IMG/VR virus record: IMGVR_UViG_3300045988_170240
Direction: 5' to 3' (one strand)
Length of the DNA stretch: 38,977 nucleotides
Source: a virus
Position numbers and translations under genes: made by a program. The notes below the pieces were generated by a model. That model was given only the letters and a program-made list of their open reading frames with translations. It was not told where the DNA came from and searched no databases. Shown piece by piece: positions 1-38,977 of this stretch (position 1 is its first letter; each line of letters starts with the position of its first letter).

Positions 1-119
1 CTTTTTTTTTATTTAAGTATTTCAACCCTTTATCGGGCGCTCAGTTAATTCAGGTAGTTACGGAGAATACAATAATTTCAGGTATTTAAAAATGCTTAGT
101 TAAATCAGGTGCTTTGGAC
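1..119. repeat. Left direct terminal repeat (119 bp), identical to 38859-38977
   Basis: Sequence 1-119 (c + T9 + atttaagtatttcaaccctttatcgggcgctcag...gctttggac) recurs exactly at the right end of the window. Confidence 0.85.
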
Positions 120-264
120 GTTTTTCATGAATACGATGAACACGTTTATCAAAGTTAAGTATTTCAACTGTTTATGAGGCGCCCAGTTAATTCAGGTAGT
201 TACGGAGAATACAATAATTTCAGGTACTTGACTTTGTTTAATTAAATCAAGTGCTTTGGACGTT
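13..264. repeat. Two tandem imperfect ~110-bp direct repeats (13-122 and 155-264, period 142 bp, roughly 85% identical); a third partial copy lies outside this interval at 301-360
   Basis: ttaagtatttcaacNNtttatNgggcgcNcagttaattcaggtagttacggagaatacaataatttcaggta...gtgctttggacgtt read twice; aataatttcaggtac recurs again at 340-354. Confidence 0.7.
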
Positions 265-710
265 ATTTCCGATAAAAGTGTATATAAAAATTAAAGACAA
301 TCATTTCAACCATTTAATTTTTTCCCCTTGAGGTTAATAATTTCAGGTACTTATCTCAGAGTGAAAATCGAAGTAAATTTCCAATAGGGTATAAGTACTT
401 GAAATATATGAGGATTCGCGGAATATCGATTTTAGCGGCACTCTCCCCAAAAACCTTTATATATATACTCCTTTAGAACTAATTTTTACTAGGTTATTAA
501 TTTATTTTTATTACTTTATCACTTTATTACTTTATAATAATAAAATAATATAATAAATATAAGGGTTTACGTGGTGCCCAAATGAAAGTGCGGAGGCCTA
601 AGCGATTTTTCGCGACACTTTAGTATTTTTGCCCTCCGTTCTGCCAATATTTTGCCGAGAGTTTTTCTGAAAGAGCAGATCCGCGAGTCCCCGAATCCTG
701 AGTATAAAAG

Positions 711-738
711 AAGGCCCGCATCGTGAAATGCGGGCCTT
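711..738 (-). terminator. Rho-independent terminator downstream of the leftward HTH gene
   Basis: Perfect 11-bp stem aaggcccgcat / atgcgggcctt with a 6-nt loop; on the - strand it is followed by CTTTTATAC; 21 nt past the stop of the 760-1056 gene. Confidence 0.55.
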
Positions 739-759
739 GAAAGTAAGAATTTTTACTGA

Positions 760-1056
760 TTAAGAAGCAGCTTCCCAAATGAACTTCTTGCCAAGCGGGT
801 CAGTGGCAATCATGATGCCCGCCTTCTTGAGATAGGACAAATTGGAACTAATGACCGCGGGCGACGTGTTGCAGGTCTCAGCAAGTTCCTTGATGCTCAT
901 ATGAGTGCCATTGGCGAGGGCTGCCTGAATCTTGTTCTTAATAGAATCAGGATTGTTGAACTTCTGCTGATACGTCTGTACCGCGAGAACCAAGTCTTCA
1001 TGAGAGAGGGCATTGAGGGCTTCGAGCGACAGATTGTTGAGTTCGTTGATGGTCAT
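760..1056 (-). CDS. Winged-helix/HTH DNA-binding regulator (98 aa) transcribed toward the left genome end
   Basis: ORF with AGGAG 7 nt upstream of the ATG; segment MSIKELAETCNTSPAVISSNLSYLKKAGI resembles an HTH recognition region. Confidence 0.6.
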   Translation of the reverse strand: MTINELNNLSLEALNALSHEDLVLAVQTYQQKFNNPDSIKNKIQAALANGTHMSIKELAETCNTSPAVISSNLSYLKKAGIMIATDPLGKKFIWEAAS

Positions 1057-1114
1057 GGTAGATCTCCTAATGGTTAGAATTTATTTAGCGTCATCACGCT
1101 CATTTGTTGAATTC

Positions 1115-1142
1115 AGTATACGCCTATTCTAGAGGGTTGTAA
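1115..1142 (-). promoter_or_regulatory. Sigma70-like promoter for the HTH gene (-35 TTACAA, 16-bp spacer, -10 TATACT)
   Basis: Read on the - strand: TTACAAccctctagaataggcgTATACT; overlaps the inverted repeat agggttgtaaaccct (candidate operator). Confidence 0.4.
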
Positions 1143-1178
1143 ACCCTTTTCTGAATAAAATTTAAAAATATTTTCTGT

Positions 1179-1207
1179 CCATTTTGCTTTCTCTATACGG
1201 GTATAAT
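1179..1207 (+). promoter_or_regulatory. Possible rightward promoter with a perfect TATAAT (1202-1207) and weak -35; divergent from the HTH promoter
   Basis: ccatttTGCTTTCTCTATACGGGTATAATtg; would transcribe the non-coding leader 1210-1900. Confidence 0.25.
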
Positions 1208-1327
1208 TGAGGACTTGGGTTGTCCTGCAATTCATTCTATCATGTATTGCAGACTTTGTACACGCCAAAACCTGGGCGCCTAAGGACCTGGGCAACCCTC
1301 ATGGTCAGTGACAGCTAATGATAGCGA

Positions 1328-1389
1328 GTGACTCCTGAATGCTCAATCAGGGGTAGGTGACTGCAGGTGACTCCTGAATGCTCAATCAG
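1328..1389. repeat. Two perfect 23-bp direct repeats gtgactcctgaatgctcaatcag (1328-1350, 1367-1389), a partial third (gtgactgcag 1357-1366), flanked by gtcagtgaca repeats (1304-1313, 1409-1418)
   Basis: Read directly; iteron-like arrangement with 39-bp period in a region lacking any credible ORF. Confidence 0.85.
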
Positions 1390-1815
1390 TGGGTGTCTGT
1401 CATCAGCTGTCAGTGACACCCGGTTGAACGCACGATCAGCCGGTCCGTCTTGCCCGCGGCGGCCGATCTGGTGGTACGGTGAACGGGAGTGAACCATATC
1501 ATCATAGCTGAACAAAGTGAAGCGCTATTATCTGTGGAACAGAGTGACACATTGTCCCAATGGTTGAACCAACGGTGAAACACCTCACGAGAAGCAAGGG
1601 CGGAGTCCCGAAGCGTATCTGCTGATTCGAGCGAATAACATGAGCGAGCTTCCACTATTAAGAGTTGAGGCGGAGCCTCAAGCTCGTATATGTTCAGTTA
1701 CAGCGTAGCAGCGCTAGCTGTATGAGCGATTAGGCTTGTAAGTGAGGGTGGAACCCGAAACGAAGAGCCGTAGCGAATACCATACTAGCGAAGCGGGCCT
1801 AATAGTTGCGAATGA

Positions 1816-1871
1816 ATCAAATTATTTTATTTGCGTTCACCGGAAGGTGAATGCGAGTAAAATAATTTGAT
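1816..1871 (+). other. Long near-perfect hairpin: 14-bp AT-rich stem (atcaaattatttta / taaaataatttgat) enclosing a 9-bp stem capped by a GGAA (GNRA) tetraloop
   Basis: Read directly; not followed by a U tract; lies 50 bp upstream of the early promoter. Confidence 0.6.
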
Positions 1872-1921
1872 TGAGCCACCACGCTGTACGCTTGTGAATA
1901 AAAGAATTATCCATAATATTG

Positions 1922-1950
1922 TTGACAGCTATCAATGATTCTGATAAGGT
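1922..1950 (+). promoter_or_regulatory. Strong host-type early promoter: -35 TTGACA, 17-bp spacer, TGaTAAGGT extended -10-like
   Basis: TTGACAgctatcaatgattctgaTAAGGT followed by RBS AAGGGAGG and the ATG at 1974. Confidence 0.5.
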
Positions 1951-1973
1951 GTATCTAACGAAAGGGAGGAAAT

Positions 1974-2180
1974 ATGAATAATGAAATATTGGATAGTTTG
2001 AGAAGAATTAGTTGTGGTATGGAAATTGTTATGAGAGATGTAATAGAAGAAAAGTATAATATGGATAGAGATTATATTGAGATAGAAGATTGGGAATTGG
2101 AATTAGAGGAAATTATTGGTAAGGGTGTAGTAGAAGGTTGGAAGGAAATAAATAGAGTTATAGAAAAGATGGAGAAGTAA
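1974..2180 (+). CDS. Small hyper-acidic early protein (68 aa, 19 D/E against 10 K/R), C-free coding sequence; candidate DNA-mimic / anti-restriction (Ocr-like) protein
   Basis: RBS AAGGGAGG 9 nt upstream; protein contains no A, H, P, Q or T because the coding strand has zero cytosines. Confidence 0.6.
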   Translation: MNNEILDSLRRISCGMEIVMRDVIEEKYNMDRDYIEIEDWELELEEIIGKGVVEGWKEINRVIEKMEK

Positions 2181-2181
2181 A

Positions 2182-2418
2182 ATGAATGTTAATGAATTGA
2201 TGTATGATTTGGAAGAATGTAAGTTGGAAGTTGAGAGTGTATTGTGGGAGATAGTTTGTGATAATAGAGGTGTAGAGAGTGTGGAAGATTTGGATGATAG
2301 ATTGTTATTGGTAGAGTGTATGGATGATTTTTATGGAGGTGATAATTGGGAGTTGTTTAAGTGGTGGATGGAGTTAGAGGAAGTGTTTATGTGGTTGTAT
2401 GATTTAAGTAATGAGTAG
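2182..2418 (+). CDS. Second small hyper-acidic early protein (78 aa, 23 D/E against 4 K/R, 5 Trp), C-free coding sequence; candidate DNA mimic / anti-defence protein
   Basis: Start ATG lies 1 nt after the TAA of the upstream gene, with a GGAG RBS; same restricted 15-letter amino-acid alphabet. Confidence 0.6.
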   Translation: MNVNELMYDLEECKLEVESVLWEIVCDNRGVESVEDLDDRLLLVECMDDFYGGDNWELFKWWMELEEVFMWLYDLSNE

Positions 2419-2423
2419 GAATG

Positions 2424-2464
2424 TGATAGAGGAACTTATAATGGTTCCTCTATCATTTTCTTTC
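2424..2464 (+). terminator. Intrinsic terminator of the early transcript: 12-bp perfect stem, loop containing TATAAT, then TTTTCTTTC
   Basis: tgatagaggaac-ttataatg-gttcctctatca-ttttctttc, immediately after the stop at 2418. Confidence 0.6.
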
Positions 2465-2606
2465 AATCGGCTGGCAACGCCAGATCCGACGAGTAATACT
2501 ATTATTCTTAATGGGGTATTAGGGAACAACGTGACCGTCCCATTAAGAATAATAGTGTTATGAGGAGGATAGATTGAAAGAAAATGATAGAGGAACCATT
2601 ATAATG
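2424..2606. repeat. Nested inverted-repeat element: 33-bp perfect IR arms (2436-2468 / 2572-2604) around a 103-bp core that has its own 18-bp perfect IR (2498-2515 / 2539-2556) and a small hairpin ctggcaacgccag (2471-2483)
   Basis: Arms verified base by base; the right arm is followed by a second tgatagaggaaccattataatg copy. Confidence 0.8.
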
Positions 2607-2720
2607 CACATGATATGAGAAATACCTAAATACTTTGCTGCTTAGGTATGAATTATGTCATAAAGAAATGTTTTTCTAGAAAAATTGGGGGCCCCGGGGG
2701 CAAGGACGCGGAGAAAAAGT

Positions 2721-2995
2721 AGTTCTTAGGTCATCCCGCATTATATTTGTCTCTTTTTCCTATTTCTCTACAACATTTGTTGATAATTCCTTATACGTGC
2801 GCGTCATGCGAAGAATCCTCATAACACATGAGTTCTATGCACAGAACTCGAGTTCTATAGAAAAAGCATGAGGGGCCTTGGTATTTTATCATTTCCACAT
2901 TTTTCTCTATAGAACTCACCCCTCATGCCAATTTCACCTCTATAGAACTACTGAGTTCTAAAGCTCCGAGTTCCGTAACTCAGGGCTTTAGAACT
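2721..2995. promoter_or_regulatory. Cluster of at least 8 copies of the AGTTCT/AGAACT motif, including the perfect palindrome half-site GAGTTCTATAG, upstream of the late operon
   Basis: AGTTCT at 2721, 2831, 2851, 2954; AGAACT at 2843, 2911, 2944, 2990; also IR catgagggg / cccctcatg (2867-2875 / 2919-2927). Confidence 0.6.
2767..2783. promoter_or_regulatory. 17-bp motif CTCTACAACATTTGTTG, repeated identically at 32627-32643; contains the inverted repeat caaca-tt-tgttg
   Basis: Exact 17-mer found twice in the genome, both in intergenic leaders. Confidence 0.5.
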
Positions 2996-3013
2996 AATGA
3001 GTTTAGAGACGTG

Positions 3014-3042
3014 GCCAAAATTCTTGTGTACATTTCCCAAAA
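3014..3042 (+). promoter_or_regulatory. Candidate late-operon promoter (-35 TTGTGT, 17-bp spacer, -10 TGATAT; weak -10, possibly activator-dependent)
   Basis: Positioned between the motif cluster and the RBS AAGGAG (3064-3069) of the first late gene. Confidence 0.3.
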
Positions 3043-3075
3043 TACTTGATATGGTACTTGTGTAAGGAGAAAATC

Positions 3076-3543
3076 ATGGATATTTCGACCCGGTGTGACA
3101 ATATGCAGCAGCAAGTTAGGTTGCTGTATGAGATATTCGGCTTTGAGGCGGATGAAATCGCCCCATTTGTCGGTCTCGCGCCCACCATGGTCAAAATGAT
3201 GATAGCTGATGGGCAGTACATAAAGGCCCCGACTAAATTTTCCAGTTTTTCGAAGAACGCAGACGACGCAAGGGACCAACTGATTGAAGTGATAATGCGT
3301 AAACAGATGGCCTTTGCGCCTATTTACGCACAAACTGAACTCATTCTTCTGCAAAAAGTAGCTGAATTAGCATCAAATATGGATGCAGATGACCCCAATG
3401 CGGCTCGAAAGCTCGACCTTCTTGCAAAAACTACGGCTACCCTCAATCAGGCAACTGTTGCGGCCATTTTGTCACAAGTGTCACAGAACAAATCTAATGA
3501 TAGTGGGATGAAGATAGAAGTAGTCAATACATTTTCAAACTAG
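3076..3543 (+). CDS. Putative terminase small subunit / DNA-binding protein (156 aa from ATG 3076; the ORF-track start at 3046 is a TTG)
   Basis: Sits directly upstream of the large terminase; RBS AAGGAG 7 nt upstream; N-terminal helix-rich region. Confidence 0.45.
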   Translation: MDISTRCDNMQQQVRLLYEIFGFEADEIAPFVGLAPTMVKMMIADGQYIKAPTKFSSFSKNADDARDQLIEVIMRKQMAFAPIYAQTELILLQKVAELASNMDADDPNAARKLDLLAKTTATLNQATVAAILSQVSQNKSNDSGMKIEVVNTFSN

Positions 3544-24111: not shown

Positions 24112-25333
24112 GAATTATTATATGGTCGACTAGCACCGGTTTGGTTTGTCCAGGCCGGCGCAGTCGACCATTTAATTGTTGATAGGTTTCGAGGGACCAA
24201 GTAAGTCCAAGCCAGCATATGCGGTGACCGCCATACTGTAGATTAAGGCCGTGGGATAATGAATTGGGGTGACAGAAAAGTACAGGGAGATTTCCTTTGT
24301 TCCATTCATGAACGTACTGCTTAGACAATTCGGTAGGAGTGCCCCCAATAATAGCTGGCGCCTCTGGAAGTCTCTTTCTAATTTCGATAAGTTCACTTCT
24401 AAACTGAATGGGAACGAGCATGGGATCGCCAGCTGCTTCCTCAATTCGGTCAAAGAGGGTATCCACTTTTGCGGTATTATCGAATATAATGTTACGCTGC
24501 TCGTCATAGATAGAACCTTGTAAGAGCTGGCGTAACCGTAATGAGAGTATTCCAGCAGTAGCTGCCGTAAGAGTACTTTCATTTGCAAGAGTCGTAATAA
24601 ATTCTGTCTGAAACTCTTTATATCGTTGCATGGACGCTGGAGGGAGATATGCGGGAATAGATGAAAAGATGTATGGTTCAAGTTTAAGATAGTCATTTGC
24701 ATCCAACCTGAAAGTTATATCTTTAATTTTATCAATCACAATATCCATTGCACCGTCGTTCTCAATCCATATGAATCTATCAATTTGAATATGATAGGTC
24801 ATCATGAATTGAGTTTTCTTTTTTCCAAGGCGCTCTCCATCATCCAAAAGAAAATACTGCGACCACAAATCTCGTACGCCATTTGGTGCGGGAGTTCCTG
24901 ATAGGGCATATGCGCGTTTAAAAAGTCGTTTAAACTCTTTCATGAGTTTGAAGCGTTTAGAACTAGAATCCTTGAGCTTTGTCATTTCATCCCAGATAAT
25001 CATGCCATCACGCATATAATTGGTCATTTCAATGGTCCAAGCCTTGCTCAACCAGTTGATACCATCATAATTTATGATATACACATCAAGACCTGGTTGC
25101 AAGTATCTTGTCTTTCCATGAAGTACTTGATACTTAAGATCAGGTCGCCATTTAGCTATTTCTTCAGGCCACGTAATAGCGGCTACAGTAAGAGGTGCAA
25201 ATATGATTGTGGGACGATCAATCATATGAAGTAGAATTGCGGTCTTTCCCATGCTCATATCGACAGCAAAATATCCTACATCATGGCTATTGCCCCATTC
25301 TACAGCCTTTTTCTGATAATCACGAAGTTCCAT
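24002..25333 (-). CDS. SNF2-family DNA-dependent ATPase/helicase (about 443 aa from ATG 25333; ORF-track start 25399 is a TTG)
   Basis: Motifs DYQ, Walker A DMSMGKT, DEMT (motif II), SGTPAPN (motif III), QLNGRLRRPGQ (motif VI). Confidence 0.75.
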   Translation of the reverse strand: MELRDYQKKAVEWGNSHDVGYFAVDMSMGKTAILLHMIDRPTIIFAPLTVAAITWPEEIAKWRPDLKYQVLHGKTRYLQPGLDVYIINYDGINWLSKAWTIEMTNYMRDGMIIWDEMTKLKDSSSKRFKLMKEFKRLFKRAYALSGTPAPNGVRDLWSQYFLLDDGERLGKKKTQFMMTYHIQIDRFIWIENDGAMDIVIDKIKDITFRLDANDYLKLEPYIFSSIPAYLPPASMQRYKEFQTEFITTLANESTLTAATAGILSLRLRQLLQGSIYDEQRNIIFDNTAKVDTLFDRIEEAAGDPMLVPIQFRSELIEIRKRLPEAPAIIGGTPTELSKQYVHEWNKGNLPVLFCHPNSLSHGLNLQYGGHRICWLGLTWSLETYQQLNGRLRRPGQTKPVLVDHIIIPKTVDDRVLSTLTRKDTTQQQLLNALKEFANESGYL

Positions 25334-25363
25334 AGTGCTTAACTCATTGGTATATATGACAAA

Positions 25364-25450
25364 CTCTATAGAACTCTTCTCAATTTTCACGCGATACAAT
25401 ATTCACGCTTTTCATTTTAAAGAGTTCTATAGAGTTCTATAATTAGTTCA
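25364..25450. promoter_or_regulatory. Second cluster of the AGTTCTATAG-family motif (ctctatagaactc 25364-25376; tandem agagttctat x2 then aattagttca at 25421-25450) between the 118-aa gene and the SNF2 helicase
   Basis: Read directly; same motif family as 2721-2995 and 471-483. Confidence 0.55.
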
Positions 25451-30549: not shown

Positions 30550-30942
30550 TTAGCGAGTTTTGCTATAGCCAAGTTTGATGCGCTCATAATTGATGTGCAT
30601 CTTTCTCTTGAACACATCCTCAACTTGCTCCCACGACAGCGAGTTGTTTTCCATAAATGCGCCCAAGAAGAAAAGTATATCAACCACCTCTTCCGCCATA
30701 TTGTCCATATTGTAGGACTTATAGCCCAACGGACGCCAAGGCTTCCAAGGGGTAGATTCTTGCAGTTCGGTCACTTCATTATGAAGCGCCGCAATCAGTT
30801 GATTGTTCATATCGCGCCGGTCAATAGCAGACCGTACAGTAGAGTTCTGATCTTCCTTGGCAATCGGATAACCAAGGATCTCATGATACTCTTTAATCAT
30901 CGCGAACATATTTGCCGCAGTGAGAGACTTTTCAGTTTCCAT
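30550..30942 (-). CDS. MazG-like nucleotide pyrophosphohydrolase (about 130 aa from the internal ATG)
   Basis: All-alpha NTP-PPase-like acidic motifs HNEVTELQE and EEVVDILFFLGAF. Confidence 0.45.
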   Translation of the reverse strand: METEKSLTAANMFAMIKEYHEILGYPIAKEDQNSTVRSAIDRRDMNNQLIAALHNEVTELQESTPWKPWRPLGYKSYNMDNMAEEVVDILFFLGAFMENNSLSWEQVEDVFKRKMHINYERIKLGYSKTR

Positions 30943-31369
30943 AGCTAAGCCCCATATGTATCCATGTATCTTCAGGCCGTACACGTGACCACAAACCATG
31001 ACCGGTTTTGTTATGATTGGTCTCATTCACGAACAGCACTTTAGTACATCCAGCATTTATAAGTGCCGCAGTACATTGGATACATGGTTCGAGTGTGCAA
31101 TATGCCACAAAAGGTACATTGCTTGACCGCTGAATGAGGGCGTTTATTTCGGCGTGCACAGCATAGCAAGGCAGGCCGTCATTCTTAACACAACAATTCT
31201 CATCGCAGCAGTTGAACACGCCTTTGGGATTGCCGTTGTAGCCTGTAGACAGAATATTGCCTGTCTTCTCGTCTACCAGCACGCATCCGACCTGCTTGTC
31301 AATACAAGTAGACCGCTGCGCGACTGCCGTAGCTACTTGGATATAATACTGGTGACGGGAGATCCGCAT
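30932..31369 (-). CDS. dCMP deaminase (145 aa from ATG 31369)
   Basis: Zinc-binding motifs HAEINAL and PCIQCTAALINAG (CDA fold H(A/C)E ... PCxxC). Confidence 0.8.
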   Translation of the reverse strand: MRISRHQYYIQVATAVAQRSTCIDKQVGCVLVDEKTGNILSTGYNGNPKGVFNCCDENCCVKNDGLPCYAVHAEINALIQRSSNVPFVAYCTLEPCIQCTAALINAGCTKVLFVNETNHNKTGHGLWSRVRPEDTWIHMGLSYGN

Positions 31370-32001
31370 GACATCTTTCCCTGGTTGCAGCGGCCATTGT
31401 GCATAAAGCAGTATGGCCCGATCATTGAGAACAGTTCGGGAAACCAGTCGCAGCACATAGAGTGCATAGCCGCGGCCAACATCTGCATTTCCTGAACGTT
31501 GCGGTGACAAAGCCGGAGCTGCAAGAAGTTAATGAGTGAGCGTGCGTTCATGGTCACAACCACATTGACGCCGGCGCTCATGGGAAGCAGCATACGAGCT
31601 TCTTCTTTTGCTTCACCATCCTGCATAAGAAGAGCATACGCGTTTACAGCTTCAGCATGCGCCTTTTGTATGCGTTCATCATTGACCATATAAGGATGCA
31701 CAAAGCAGTCATAGGACGTATAATCCTGATAATGCTGACTGCTGGACGTGTAAGATGCAATACGATGCCGCACATGCTGATCAAAGCAAGCCCGAGATAC
31801 GTCGGTAATGCGGAAGCAAATGACCGCGTGTTCCACAGGATTGAGATGATCAGCCGAGATCAAGAACGATAATAGAGCACTCGGATTTCCCTTGATCTCG
31901 GGGTTCTTCTTCATCGTTTGCTGGGCAGCCAGGGCAACCACATTTGCAGGATACGGGGTCGACCATATTACTTGGGCTTTCGGGGCATACGGCTTCAGCA
32001 T
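31333..32001 (-). CDS. thyX: FAD-dependent thymidylate synthase ThyX (222 aa from ATG 32001, RBS AAGGAG)
   Basis: ThyX signature RHRIASYTSSS (RHR-x7-S). Confidence 0.8.
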   Translation of the reverse strand: MLKPYAPKAQVIWSTPYPANVVALAAQQTMKKNPEIKGNPSALLSFLISADHLNPVEHAVICFRITDVSRACFDQHVRHRIASYTSSSQHYQDYTSYDCFVHPYMVNDERIQKAHAEAVNAYALLMQDGEAKEEARMLLPMSAGVNVVVTMNARSLINFLQLRLCHRNVQEMQMLAAAMHSMCCDWFPELFSMIGPYCFMHNGRCNQGKMSCGSPVTSIISK

Positions 32002-32617
32002 TTTCGTATTCTCCTTCGATTGTGTGATAAACAGGATGATAGACCCGCAGGCCATGAAAACGTGGTGATTTCACGTAATTATCGCCGTAATTGCATGCTT
32101 TACACATGCGCCCTTTAGGACGAGAAGACCATTCGCAGGTATCACAGCCCTTAATTACAAACTGTTCTACCGCATGGTCATAAGGATATCCACAATCTTT
32201 GACTACAAAGTTGTTGTCACCCTCATCATTGTTCTTGTAGTATGTACATGCAACGCACTTGTTATTGGTAACAAGATTGTTGCTCAGTGCACTATATACA
32301 CAATTTTTGCACCCCATTTCGACAGACTTTGCACTATCATTTTTGGGATTACACGCGAACCAATGCAGAAACATAGCATTAGCTGCAATATGAGCAAGGT
32401 GAGACTGACCCGATTCAGGATCATTCATCTCACCGCGCTCGAAGGCATTCAGATGACGATGCAGAGCATCAAGATAGCGCCGATGTGCGTTATCTGTAGT
32501 TTTCCAGTCCTCAGGCCCGTATTTTTCCGCGCCCATGGTAAGAACCTTTGCTAGCTCAAGAGCAAACTTAGGTTCAATAAGCGAGAAAAGGGGCTTTCCA
32601 GAATCAAATTTCGACAT
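31850..32617 (-). CDS. dATP/dGTP pyrophosphohydrolase-like N-terminal domain fused to a Cys-rich (putative Zn-binding) C-terminal domain (255 aa)
   Basis: N-terminal KPLFSLIEPKFALELAKVLTMGAEKYGPEDWK...HLAHIAANAMFLHWF; C-terminal multiple CxxC pairs; the 3' 150 nt overlap thyX in another frame. Confidence 0.4.
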   Translation of the reverse strand: MSKFDSGKPLFSLIEPKFALELAKVLTMGAEKYGPEDWKTTDNAHRRYLDALHRHLNAFERGEMNDPESGQSHLAHIAANAMFLHWFACNPKNDSAKSVEMGCKNCVYSALSNNLVTNNKCVACTYYKNNDEGDNNFVVKDCGYPYDHAVEQFVIKGCDTCEWSSRPKGRMCKACNYGDNYVKSPRFHGLRVYHPVYHTIEGEYENAEAVCPESPSNMVDPVSCKCGCPGCPANDEEEPRDQGKSECSIIVLDLG

Positions 32618-38858: not shown

Positions 38859-38977
38859 CTTTTTTTTTATTTAAGTATTTCAACCCTTTATCGGGCGCTC
38901 AGTTAATTCAGGTAGTTACGGAGAATACAATAATTTCAGGTATTTAAAAATGCTTAGTTAAATCAGGTGCTTTGGAC
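38859..38977. repeat. Right direct terminal repeat, identical to 1-119
   Basis: Exact match to the window start. Confidence 0.85.

Follow-up and report, generated by a model that had tools for sequence, protein, structure and literature searches.

A nested inverted repeat closing the variable early cassette of an uncultured gut podovirus-type phage, read as a plus-strand structure with a putative terminator partner switch

The stretch of DNA analysed here, hereafter the window (38,977 nucleotides), is a circular assembly of about 38.9 kb whose ends overlap by 117 nt, and it represents an uncultured podovirus-type phage from the human gut. Its + strand carries a terS-like gene, terL, and genes for a T7-type portal, capsid and tail, and its − strand carries those for a family A DNA polymerase, a primase-helicase, a ligase, an exonuclease, an SSB and nucleotide metabolism. 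Among the phage ORFs scanned with Pfam and PHROGs, no RNA polymerase, integrase, recombinase, transposase, reverse transcriptase or RNase III was found; given that no gene for an RNA polymerase or RNase III was found in the phage, transcription and RNA processing must be the host's. A close cultured relative is absent, the portal being 37% identical to pelagiphage portals, and a distant-mode blastn search with positions 1900-3100 matched none of 50,697 phage records. In public data the phage is frequent, a single variant of its ORF1 protein being present on 210 contigs, and those contigs that state a source come from human-gut metagenomes.

The element under study is located in a 3-kb control region between two divergent gene blocks, where a TTGACA-type promoter, two genes devoid of cytosine on the coding strand (C-free genes), the element itself, the motif GGGGGCCCCGGGGGCAAGGACG, a CTATAGAAC cluster and terS (at 3076) follow one another. 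The features of this region are listed below.

1922-1950, + strand: presumed early promoter (TTGACA at 1922-1927, 17-nt spacer, TAAGGT at 1945-1950), followed by SD AGGGAGG and an ATG at 1974
1974-2418, + strand: two early genes with no C on the coding strand (ORF1, 1974-2180; ORF2, 2182-2418), a variable cassette closed by the element
2423-2464, + strand: terminator-like hairpin, with X at 2423-2436, loop TATAAT, X' at 2443-2456 and T-tract TTTCTTTC; wobbles G2423·U2456 and U2436·G2443
2436-2468, + strand: left arm of the 33-bp perfect inverted repeat, holding the terminator loop, X', the T-tract and CAATC
2471-2483, + strand: small side hairpin CTGGC-AAC-GCCAG, from the MFE fold
2491-2562, + strand: inner long hairpin, stem 2494-2515 / 2539-2560 with 18 perfect pairs, wobbles T2497·G2557 and G2493·T2561, apical loop 2516-2538
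2572-2604, + strand: right arm of the 33-bp inverted repeat, holding X2 (2584-2597), a second copy of the terminator 5' half; X2:X' pairs are Watson-Crick only
2687-2708, + strand: unique motif GGGGGCCCCGGGGGCAAGGACG, 83 nt downstream of the element; context, not a part of the hairpin
2687-2704: motif stretch GGGGGCCCCGGGGG

The presumed early promoter went unlisted in our consensus scan because its -10 hexamer is weak, and relatives L036 and L037 have its TTGTTGACA -35 block ahead of their early genes as well. The element directly follows the C-free genes, as a previous reading made from the sequence only had indicated: the C-free run spans exactly 1960-2434 (475 nt, the next longest in the window being 54 nt), and the first C after it is the top of the terminator 5' arm. 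At least three different types of cassette end at the same junction in relatives, directly before GATAGAGG, namely the C-free genes, a C-containing ORF1 homologue together with another gene, and a third type. Since the element is invariant while the cassettes on its left flank differ, sequence comparison identifies it as the constant right-hand edge at which changing early cassettes end, and not as an insertion. This cassette is hypervariable and apparently has an anti-defence role; it comprises exchangeable small acidic genes, some of them recoded without any cytosine. The literature on C-free phage genes and on cos-linked inverted repeats in podoviruses yielded nothing directly relevant other than a cos prediction for phage phiVC8, considered below.

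On the other side of the element, the core GGGGCCCCGGGGG of the motif has an exact match in the window at this one place only, and an exact motif search beyond the window returned the same phage only; in relatives the motif is kept at 57-86% TerL identity, and in many at 42-50%. The recognisable regulator motif of the phage, CTATAGAAC, occupies 2851-2995, before terS, and 25326-25436, in the other operon, and a regulated promoter of its own, lying further downstream, probably drives the packaging/structural operon.

All structural statements of the sequence-only reading proved correct base for base. An inverted-repeat search recovered the outer arms, 2436-2468 and 2572-2604, as 33 nt of 100% complementarity placed 103 nt apart, ranked the element as the longest inverted repeat within 400 nt in the whole window, and confirmed the perfect 18-nt core of the inner repeat (2498-2515 / 2539-2556); the latter is longer than its core, extending over 2494-2515 / 2539-2560 (22 nt, 95%) with T2497:G2557 as its sole mismatch. 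The arm occurs in the window in just those two places at up to 3 mismatches, and no shuffle showed any match (0/100). The small hairpin at 2471-2483, also described before, is present in the MFE fold, and folding of 2400-2620 as RNA, a check that had been suggested, gave −98.3 kcal/mol (z = −13.4). The left hairpin had been proposed to act as the early terminator, and a terminator scan did pick up 2423-2456 with its T-tract, scoring 12 Watson-Crick and 2 G-T pairs around a TATAAT loop with TTTCTTTCAA as tail; folded alone, this hairpin reaches −26.2 kcal/mol (z = −7.2). Its 14 pairs (5 G-C, 2 G-T) and 6-nt loop have the dimensions of an intrinsic terminator (5-14 bp with G-C pairs, loop of 3-8 nt), the TTTCTTTCAA tail provides the U-tract 3' of the stem, and the ORF2 stop codon (2416-2418) stands 5 nt upstream. 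The 3' half of this terminator is the start of the left arm, and no U-tract follows the right arm in the window. A search of the window against Rfam 15 gave 0 matches at gathering score, and in 1-3100 nothing beyond sub-threshold chance matches; neither tRNA nor tmRNA was found, and a search for trans targets of the apical loop and the junctions gave only chance matches of 9-10 nt. A candidate mini-ORF of 14 aa, which begins with a TTG at 2574 that has GAGGAGG ahead of it, gained no support other than its sequence and was set aside.

The pairing potential is kept in relatives of different sequence, which answers the comparison recommended by the sequence-only reading. The relative at 86% TerL identity (Logan contig SRR10822055_855, which starts and stops within the arms) has 5 substitutions and 2 indels in its arms relative to those of the window, and its arms are still perfect complements over at least 30 nt, the left arm being CTTATTAAGTTTCTCTACCATTCTTTTATC and the right arm, GATAAAAGAATGGTAGAGAAACTTAATAAG, its exact complement; this arm is absent from IMG/VR. 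Its small hairpin reads CGGC-GAA-GCCG, a paired deletion (CTGGC/GCCAG to CGGC/GCCG) that keeps the stem. Relatives at 57-63% TerL identity have unrelated sequence and long nested hairpins at the same site, with L061 as an exception. In L036 (63%), the 3' half of a good terminator and its T-tract come back in inverted orientation about 165 nt further on, and the stretch in between contains an inner hairpin and two perfect nested repeats of 14 bp (−100 kcal/mol, z = −11.8). In L054 (62%), 40-nt arms of 98% complementarity are flanked by an A-tract and a T-tract, and each arm contains an outward-facing terminator-like hairpin with a T-tract; L055 (61%) shows three hairpins closed by a 10-bp stem, and L056 (57%) has 34-nt arms that close a palindrome of about 310 nt. 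No long repeat was found at the site in L061 (59%), nor in most of 80 more distant relatives (42-57%), although the GGGCCC...GGGG motif, about 400-560 nt ahead of terL, is retained in many. Because L061 and most relatives at 42-57% are without a long inverted repeat at the site, the distribution points to an element that is not essential to the family; similarly, many relatives carry the motif without a long inverted repeat, so that the two are not obligatory partners and the hairpin is best described, from these genomes, as a clade-restricted accessory.

The kind of molecule on which selection acts is suggested by the mismatches between the arms. Comparing left halves with the reverse complement of right halves, we counted 21 G:T and 1 A:C mismatches (binomial p = 1.1e-5), and the adjacent intergenic DNA shows no G+T excess, so that a regional mutation bias does not explain the excess of G:T. 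In line with this count, the + strand folds better than the − strand in 5/5 lineages, by MFE gaps of 13-44 kcal/mol versus 5-18 between the means of the shuffles, and the folds of the five lineages contain 25 G·U pairs on the + strand and 6 on the − strand. Only one polymorphism recurs within the element: T2561 to C, in three contigs, which converts G2493·U to G-C. Pairing is kept through compensatory change, as seen in the mirrored arm changes of the 86% relative, in the architecture of L036, L054 and L056, and in the ratio of G:T to A:C of 21 to 1. An excess of this size means that the form under selection is the + strand in a single-stranded state, and the element is, very probably, a selected single-stranded structure of the + strand. 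A cruciform in double-stranded DNA, which had been among the earlier proposals, is disfavoured by the strand-asymmetric mismatches, as are identical protein sites, because a dsDNA role predicts no asymmetry between G:T and A:C. The strand bias alone fails to separate RNA from + strand ssDNA, because hairpins of ssDNA tolerate G·T wobbles as well. Speaking against an RNA-level role, perfection over 33/33 positions is unusual for RNA stems, and gene conversion between the arms could contribute to it.

Within the + strand, the terminator and the long hairpin share one segment. In the window, in the 86% relative and in L036, X' can pair either with X, forming the terminator, or with X2, forming the long hairpin. 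The X:X' pairing contains G·U wobbles (2 in the window, 1 in L037, 1 in L036), and X2:X' is Watson-Crick at the same positions: in the window, G2423·U2456 stands against A2584-U and U2436·G2443 against C2597-G; in the 86% relative the pattern is GGTAGAGGAAC versus GGTAGAGAAAC, and in L036 it is GGGCCATC versus GGACCATC. The pairing with X2 also takes in the terminator loop and the U-tract, and since it adds these to its Watson-Crick pairs, the long duplex is strongly favoured once X2 is transcribed. As in a sib-type element, the long duplex can form only on read-through past an internal terminator, X2 (2584-2597) lying 120 nt beyond the U-tract, and the same layout of terminator and X2 is present in L036 and L037. 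The terminator overlap together with the X / X' / X2 wobble pattern reads as the logic of an RNA conformational switch, with no obvious rationale at the DNA level. No N- or Q-like antiterminator was recognised by Pfam or PHROGs in this phage, many of whose ORFs are unannotated, and no other device that would increase read-through was found. Of the four candidate explanations offered previously, a structured RNA or RNase III processing site fits best, on account of the conserved pairing and the G·U bias of the + strand; the structured + strand is upheld, and cleavage by RNase III is a prediction.

We propose that the element works as RNA, in the + strand transcript, to set the variable early cassette apart from the packaging/late control region, and we assign a rough probability of 0.4 to its being a terminator combined with an alternative long RNA duplex that forms on read-through only, acting as an RNase III-type fail-safe insulator or retroregulator. 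In this model, in which passage of the polymerase through the element, refolding of the RNA, its cutting by RNase III and what follows from that are all inferred, transcription of the two C-free genes by host RNA polymerase would begin at the early promoter, and most early transcripts would stop at the X:X' terminator (2423-2456 and U-tract), ending in a short stable 3' hairpin. On read-through, X2 would be transcribed and would outcompete X for X', and with 33 perfect base pairs the RNA would refold into a hairpin of about 170 nt consisting of the 33-bp perfect duplex, the small side hairpin and the 24-bp inner duplex. Bacterial RNase III cuts perfectly paired dsRNA from a length of about two helical turns upwards, and the predicted + strand fold offers a 33-bp perfect stem and a 24-bp inner stem, where about 20 bp or more is expected of an RNase III site; because perfect duplexes of that length are standard substrates, the refolded RNA is a predicted substrate of the enzyme. 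Cutting of the duplexes by host RNase III would strip the early message of its protective 3' hairpin and would leave the downstream RNA with a 5' monophosphate, and the net effect would be destruction of the read-through RNA on both sides, that is, a fail-safe insulator; read-through from the strong early promoter would then occur without expression of the packaging and structural operon. If read-through rose late in infection, the same arrangement would also be a retroregulator, silencing the early genes in the way that lambda sib silences int. In favour of an RNA-level role, the hairpin starts 5 nt past the ORF2 stop; against it, L056 has no + strand gene upstream of its hairpin, and transcription there is assumed.

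This last relative is among the reasons for weighing a role at the DNA level, the main alternative, in which a + strand ssDNA hairpin or another DNA structure linked to GGGGCCCCGGGGG would serve replication, packaging or genome-end biology; we regard this as unlikely, with a chance large enough to be taken seriously. Such a structure might help to end packaging in a cosQ-like manner, shield or hold up the genome end that is injected first, or have its role on the lagging-strand template, and the GGGGCCCCGGGGG site could be a cos or pac cleavage site. The hairpin lies 35-113 nt upstream of the GGGGCCCCGGGGG motif, which itself precedes terS, and the order of long inverted repeat, GGGGCCCC motif, phage-specific repeats, terS and terL recurs in the window, L033, L036, L054, L055 and L056; the genome has the motif once only, relatives keep it down to a TerL identity of about 42%, L056 has kept its hairpin without an upstream + strand gene, and a fork travelling rightward from the iteron/AT-rich region at 1-560 would have the + strand as its lagging-strand template. 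Further, the distant podovirus phiVC8, which has a related terminase, has cohesive ends with a cos upstream of terS as a bioinformatic prediction only (PMC4802629). However, most relatives with the motif have no long inverted repeat nearby, L061 among them, and the overlap of terminator stem and U-tract in four lineages, together with the wobble pattern, follows the logic of RNA. Contig ends show no consistent physical terminus either: full-length Logan contigs stop in the arm as an effect of assembly, a k of 31 falling short of the 33-bp repeat, and the other ends are scattered, for which reason we rejected contig ends as evidence of physical termini or of inversion. A break at 2516/2517 in IMG/VR loci L002/L005 lies off any contig end and was taken as a storage boundary, and a protelomerase site was discarded, since the palindrome is not contiguous and no protelomerase is present. 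More doubtful still is an undescribed cis element at the last-packaged/first-injected end, where the folded + strand, as ssDNA or RNA, would work with GGGGCCCCGGGGG in packaging termination, end protection or stepwise entry, or where an RNA switch would tie expression of the cassette to its own destruction. The arms could also be paired protein-binding or promoter units through which a phage regulator, for instance the 98-aa winged-helix protein, loops DNA or controls divergent promoters, which we deem improbable. It is true that GATAGAGGAAC appears three times (2425, 2444 on the − strand, and 2586), that each arm has an outward TTGAAA-17-CATTAT, at 2574-2602 (+) and 2466-2438 (−), and that the distant relative L071 has an inverted repeat of GATTGCCAC-type sites flanking its iterons; yet the 86% relative (right arm GATAAAAGAATGGTAGAGAAACTTAATAAG) retains neither the -35 nor the -10 hexamer, which led us to reject outward-facing promoters as a function of the arms, the region shows no enrichment of promoter-like matches (14 versus 10.1 ± 3.3 in shuffles), the recognisable regulator motif of the phage is a different one, CTATAGAAC, and binding to dsDNA does not predict 21 G:T against 1 A:C.

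Two readings that involve rearrangement or mobility fare worse when the occurrence of the element is considered. The exact arm was found in IMG/VR in contigs of the same phage only, a pattern of flank plus arm recovered 14 further metagenome contigs, and across about 20 independent contigs the element is near-identical (three point or indel variants), with one interior orientation and one right flank. No arm was found in bacteria or archaea (0 matches in 185,579 genomes, one per species), and no relatives of the phage were found in bacterial genomes. Inversion of the 103-bp interior by recombination between the arms, as in an inverton, would agree with the 33-bp perfect repeats around a short segment, the anatomy sought by inverton finders, and one full-length ENA contig terminates within the interior; the inverted junction would read GATAGAGGAAC and left arm joined to TATCCTCCTC. 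Nevertheless, all of the roughly 20 independent contigs that span flank, arm and interior, assembled contigs only, have the same orientation (0 inverted), no invertase or recombinase domain was found in the scanned ORFs, no promoter was seen within the segment, and the interior is itself a hairpin prolonging the arm pairing into one continuous stem-loop. The recombination site suggested at first is thus not supported, nor is an inversion site, and we consider an inverton very improbable. A MITE-like mobile insertion, also put forward on sequence grounds, is the least credible of all: perfect terminal inverted repeats of 33 bp and a small size (169 bp) speak for it, and the palindrome TTATAA with which the arms start and finish could hide a target-site duplication, from which it is indistinguishable, no direct repeat being present outside the arms. 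Against this, there is a single copy per genome, each occurrence in IMG/VR and in the metagenome contigs is this phage at this junction, with no copies at unrelated loci and no presence/absence polymorphism, the 185,579 bacterial and archaeal genomes gave 0 matches, no empty site was found among close relatives, diverged homologues occupy the syntenic position in the 86% relative, and the phage has no transposase. By these counts the element is not mobile.

Should the partner-switch model be true, a phage that depends on the host polymerase would make a leaky terminator effectively tight, early-gene shut-off could be timed with about 180 nt of RNA and a host RNase, and the compact design would be of interest for synthetic insulators. 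Further, the strand-biased wobble test constitutes a simple and reusable means to separate RNA or ssDNA palindromes from dsDNA ones in metagenomic phages.

Several known systems share parts of this design. Intrinsic and bidirectional terminators have the same hairpin and U-tract right after a stop codon, and the arms of L054 have outward terminator-like hairpins; however, a terminator can do without its 3' half being repeated in inverted form over 33 bp, 103 nt further on. Invertons resemble the element in having inverted repeats of 15-35 bp around a segment of about 100-300 bp, from which it departs in its single orientation in about 20 contigs, the absence of a recombinase and the strand-biased wobbles. 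The msr-msd RNA of retrons also shows a long a1/a2-like terminal pairing around a small and a long hairpin, but here a reverse transcriptase is lacking, relatives do not share the architecture of the interior and Rfam gave no match; a retron-like reading was rejected, no RVT domain being found in the phage. Plasmid sso and the Frpo of plasmid F are likewise long imperfect palindromes that act as folded single strands in a strand-specific manner, whereas they belong to replicons with an obligatory ssDNA stage and the present phage is a dsDNA podovirus with its own primase-helicase, whose arm hexamers are not conserved.

The closest known systems are lambda sib/tI retroregulation and the early RNase III sites of T7. 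The early RNase III sites of T7/T3, which reportedly accompany the terminator TE, are similar in being hairpins between or after the early genes of a podovirus transcribed by the host polymerase and in their processing by host RNase III, here proposed; unlike the element, the T7 sites are stems of about 20-25 bp with internal loops that are cut once, leaving a 3' hairpin that stabilises the upstream mRNA, while the perfect 33-bp duplex of the element would be cut on both strands, and it has no Rfam match. In lambda sib/tI retroregulation, a duplex formed on read-through is said to be cut by RNase III, exposing the upstream message. Both there and here, a terminator lies inside a larger dyad symmetry, the terminated RNA ends in a short stable hairpin, and the long duplex arises on read-through only. 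The lambda stem, however, extends the same hairpin, whereas the element would switch X' to a downstream X2 over a perfect 33 bp with a structured interior of 103 nt; in addition, an N-like antiterminator is not known for the element, where cleavage is only predicted. On this comparison, the element is most likely a variation on known phage tricks and not a new kind of system, differing in the partner switch and in the length and perfection of the duplex.

The early genes preceding the long hairpin are distinguished by their base composition: the coding strand of ORF1 and ORF2 contains zero C, versus 21.9% across the genome, and their small, acidic products returned zero Pfam or PHROG matches. 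This trait extends to a close relative (locus L007) in which a 743-nt run without C holds three C-free genes, and the relative with 86% identity in the large terminase (TerL) has 2 C in a total of 439 nt. Since a 79-aa ORF1 homologue in other close relatives has 9.7% C, the C-free genes must be recoded versions. The features compared within and around the control region are the following:

Window 1960-2434, C-free run with ORF1 (1974-2180) and ORF2 (2182-2418)
L007 4137-4879, C-free run of a close relative
L037 1-490, - strand, early genes of the 86% TerL relative
L010 2054-2290, further locus compared for C-free early genes
Window ~1186-1900, GC-rich (50-60%), ORF-poor stretch
Window 2687-2780, unique motif GGGGGCCCCGGGGGCAAGGACG, followed by two conserved blocks, TTAGGTCATCCCGCATTATATTTG and CTCTACAACATTTGT
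L033 111, L034 113, L036 4262, L061 3372 and many of L076-L135, motif GGGGGCCCCGGGGGCAAGGACG in relatives
Window 2851-2995 and 25326-25436, clusters of palindromic motif CTATAGAAC (AGTTCTATAGAACT-like)
Window 760-1056 (- strand), L036 3614-3952 and L054 2582-3001, gene of a 98-aa winged-helix protein
L056 2868-3179 and L071 2276-2673, long inverted repeat enclosing tandem direct repeats of ~16-17 nt

Upstream of the early genes, the GC-rich stretch is bounded by a TATAAT-type promoter (~1186-1210) and a terminator-like hairpin with 27-bp arms (1815-1872), and carries the internal repeat GTGACTCCTGAATGCTCAATCAG twice (1328-1390). Close relatives keep it, Rfam gave no match for it, and L036 (63% TerL identity) has a GC-rich counterpart at 2880-3400; the stretch of the window may correspond to a non-coding RNA of ~650 nt.

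On the side of the small terminase gene terS, GGGGGCCCCGGGGGCAAGGACG itself is retained upstream of this gene as far as ~42% TerL identity, and the two blocks that follow it were seen in closer relatives only (57-86%); the motif is a candidate cos/pac site or late-control element. The CTATAGAAC palindromes (8 matches vs 1.6 expected) form clusters in two places only, namely upstream of terS and before the SNF2-helicase gene (- strand), where a phage regulator probably has its sites. The winged-helix protein displays family-wide conservation, but the strand and position of its gene in the control region differ; the + strand gene immediately upstream of the long hairpin encodes this protein in both L036 and L054.

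Among the distant relatives, the left and right repeat blocks of L056 are mutually complementary, with mismatches comprising 10 G:T and 0 A:C. In L071, repeated GATTGCCAC-type sites make up the arms and surround iterons, which looks like a different, DNA-level arrangement.

The two ends of the window share a 117-nt overlap (right end 38861-38977), which points to a circular assembly. Within 1-560, ~110-nt direct repeats at 13-125 and 155-267, a third copy that is partial, and a stretch at ~450-560 where GC falls to 14% together have the appearance of a replication origin.

Elsewhere in the genome, one further group of genes was identified:

Window 30550-32617, - strand, nucleotide-metabolism gene cluster

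Its members encode a MazG/dUTPase_2-like protein, a dCMP/cytidine deaminase, ThyX, and a protein carrying a domain that 2-aminoadenine phages are known to have, the dATP/dGTP diphosphohydrolase N-terminal domain. No PurZ was seen.
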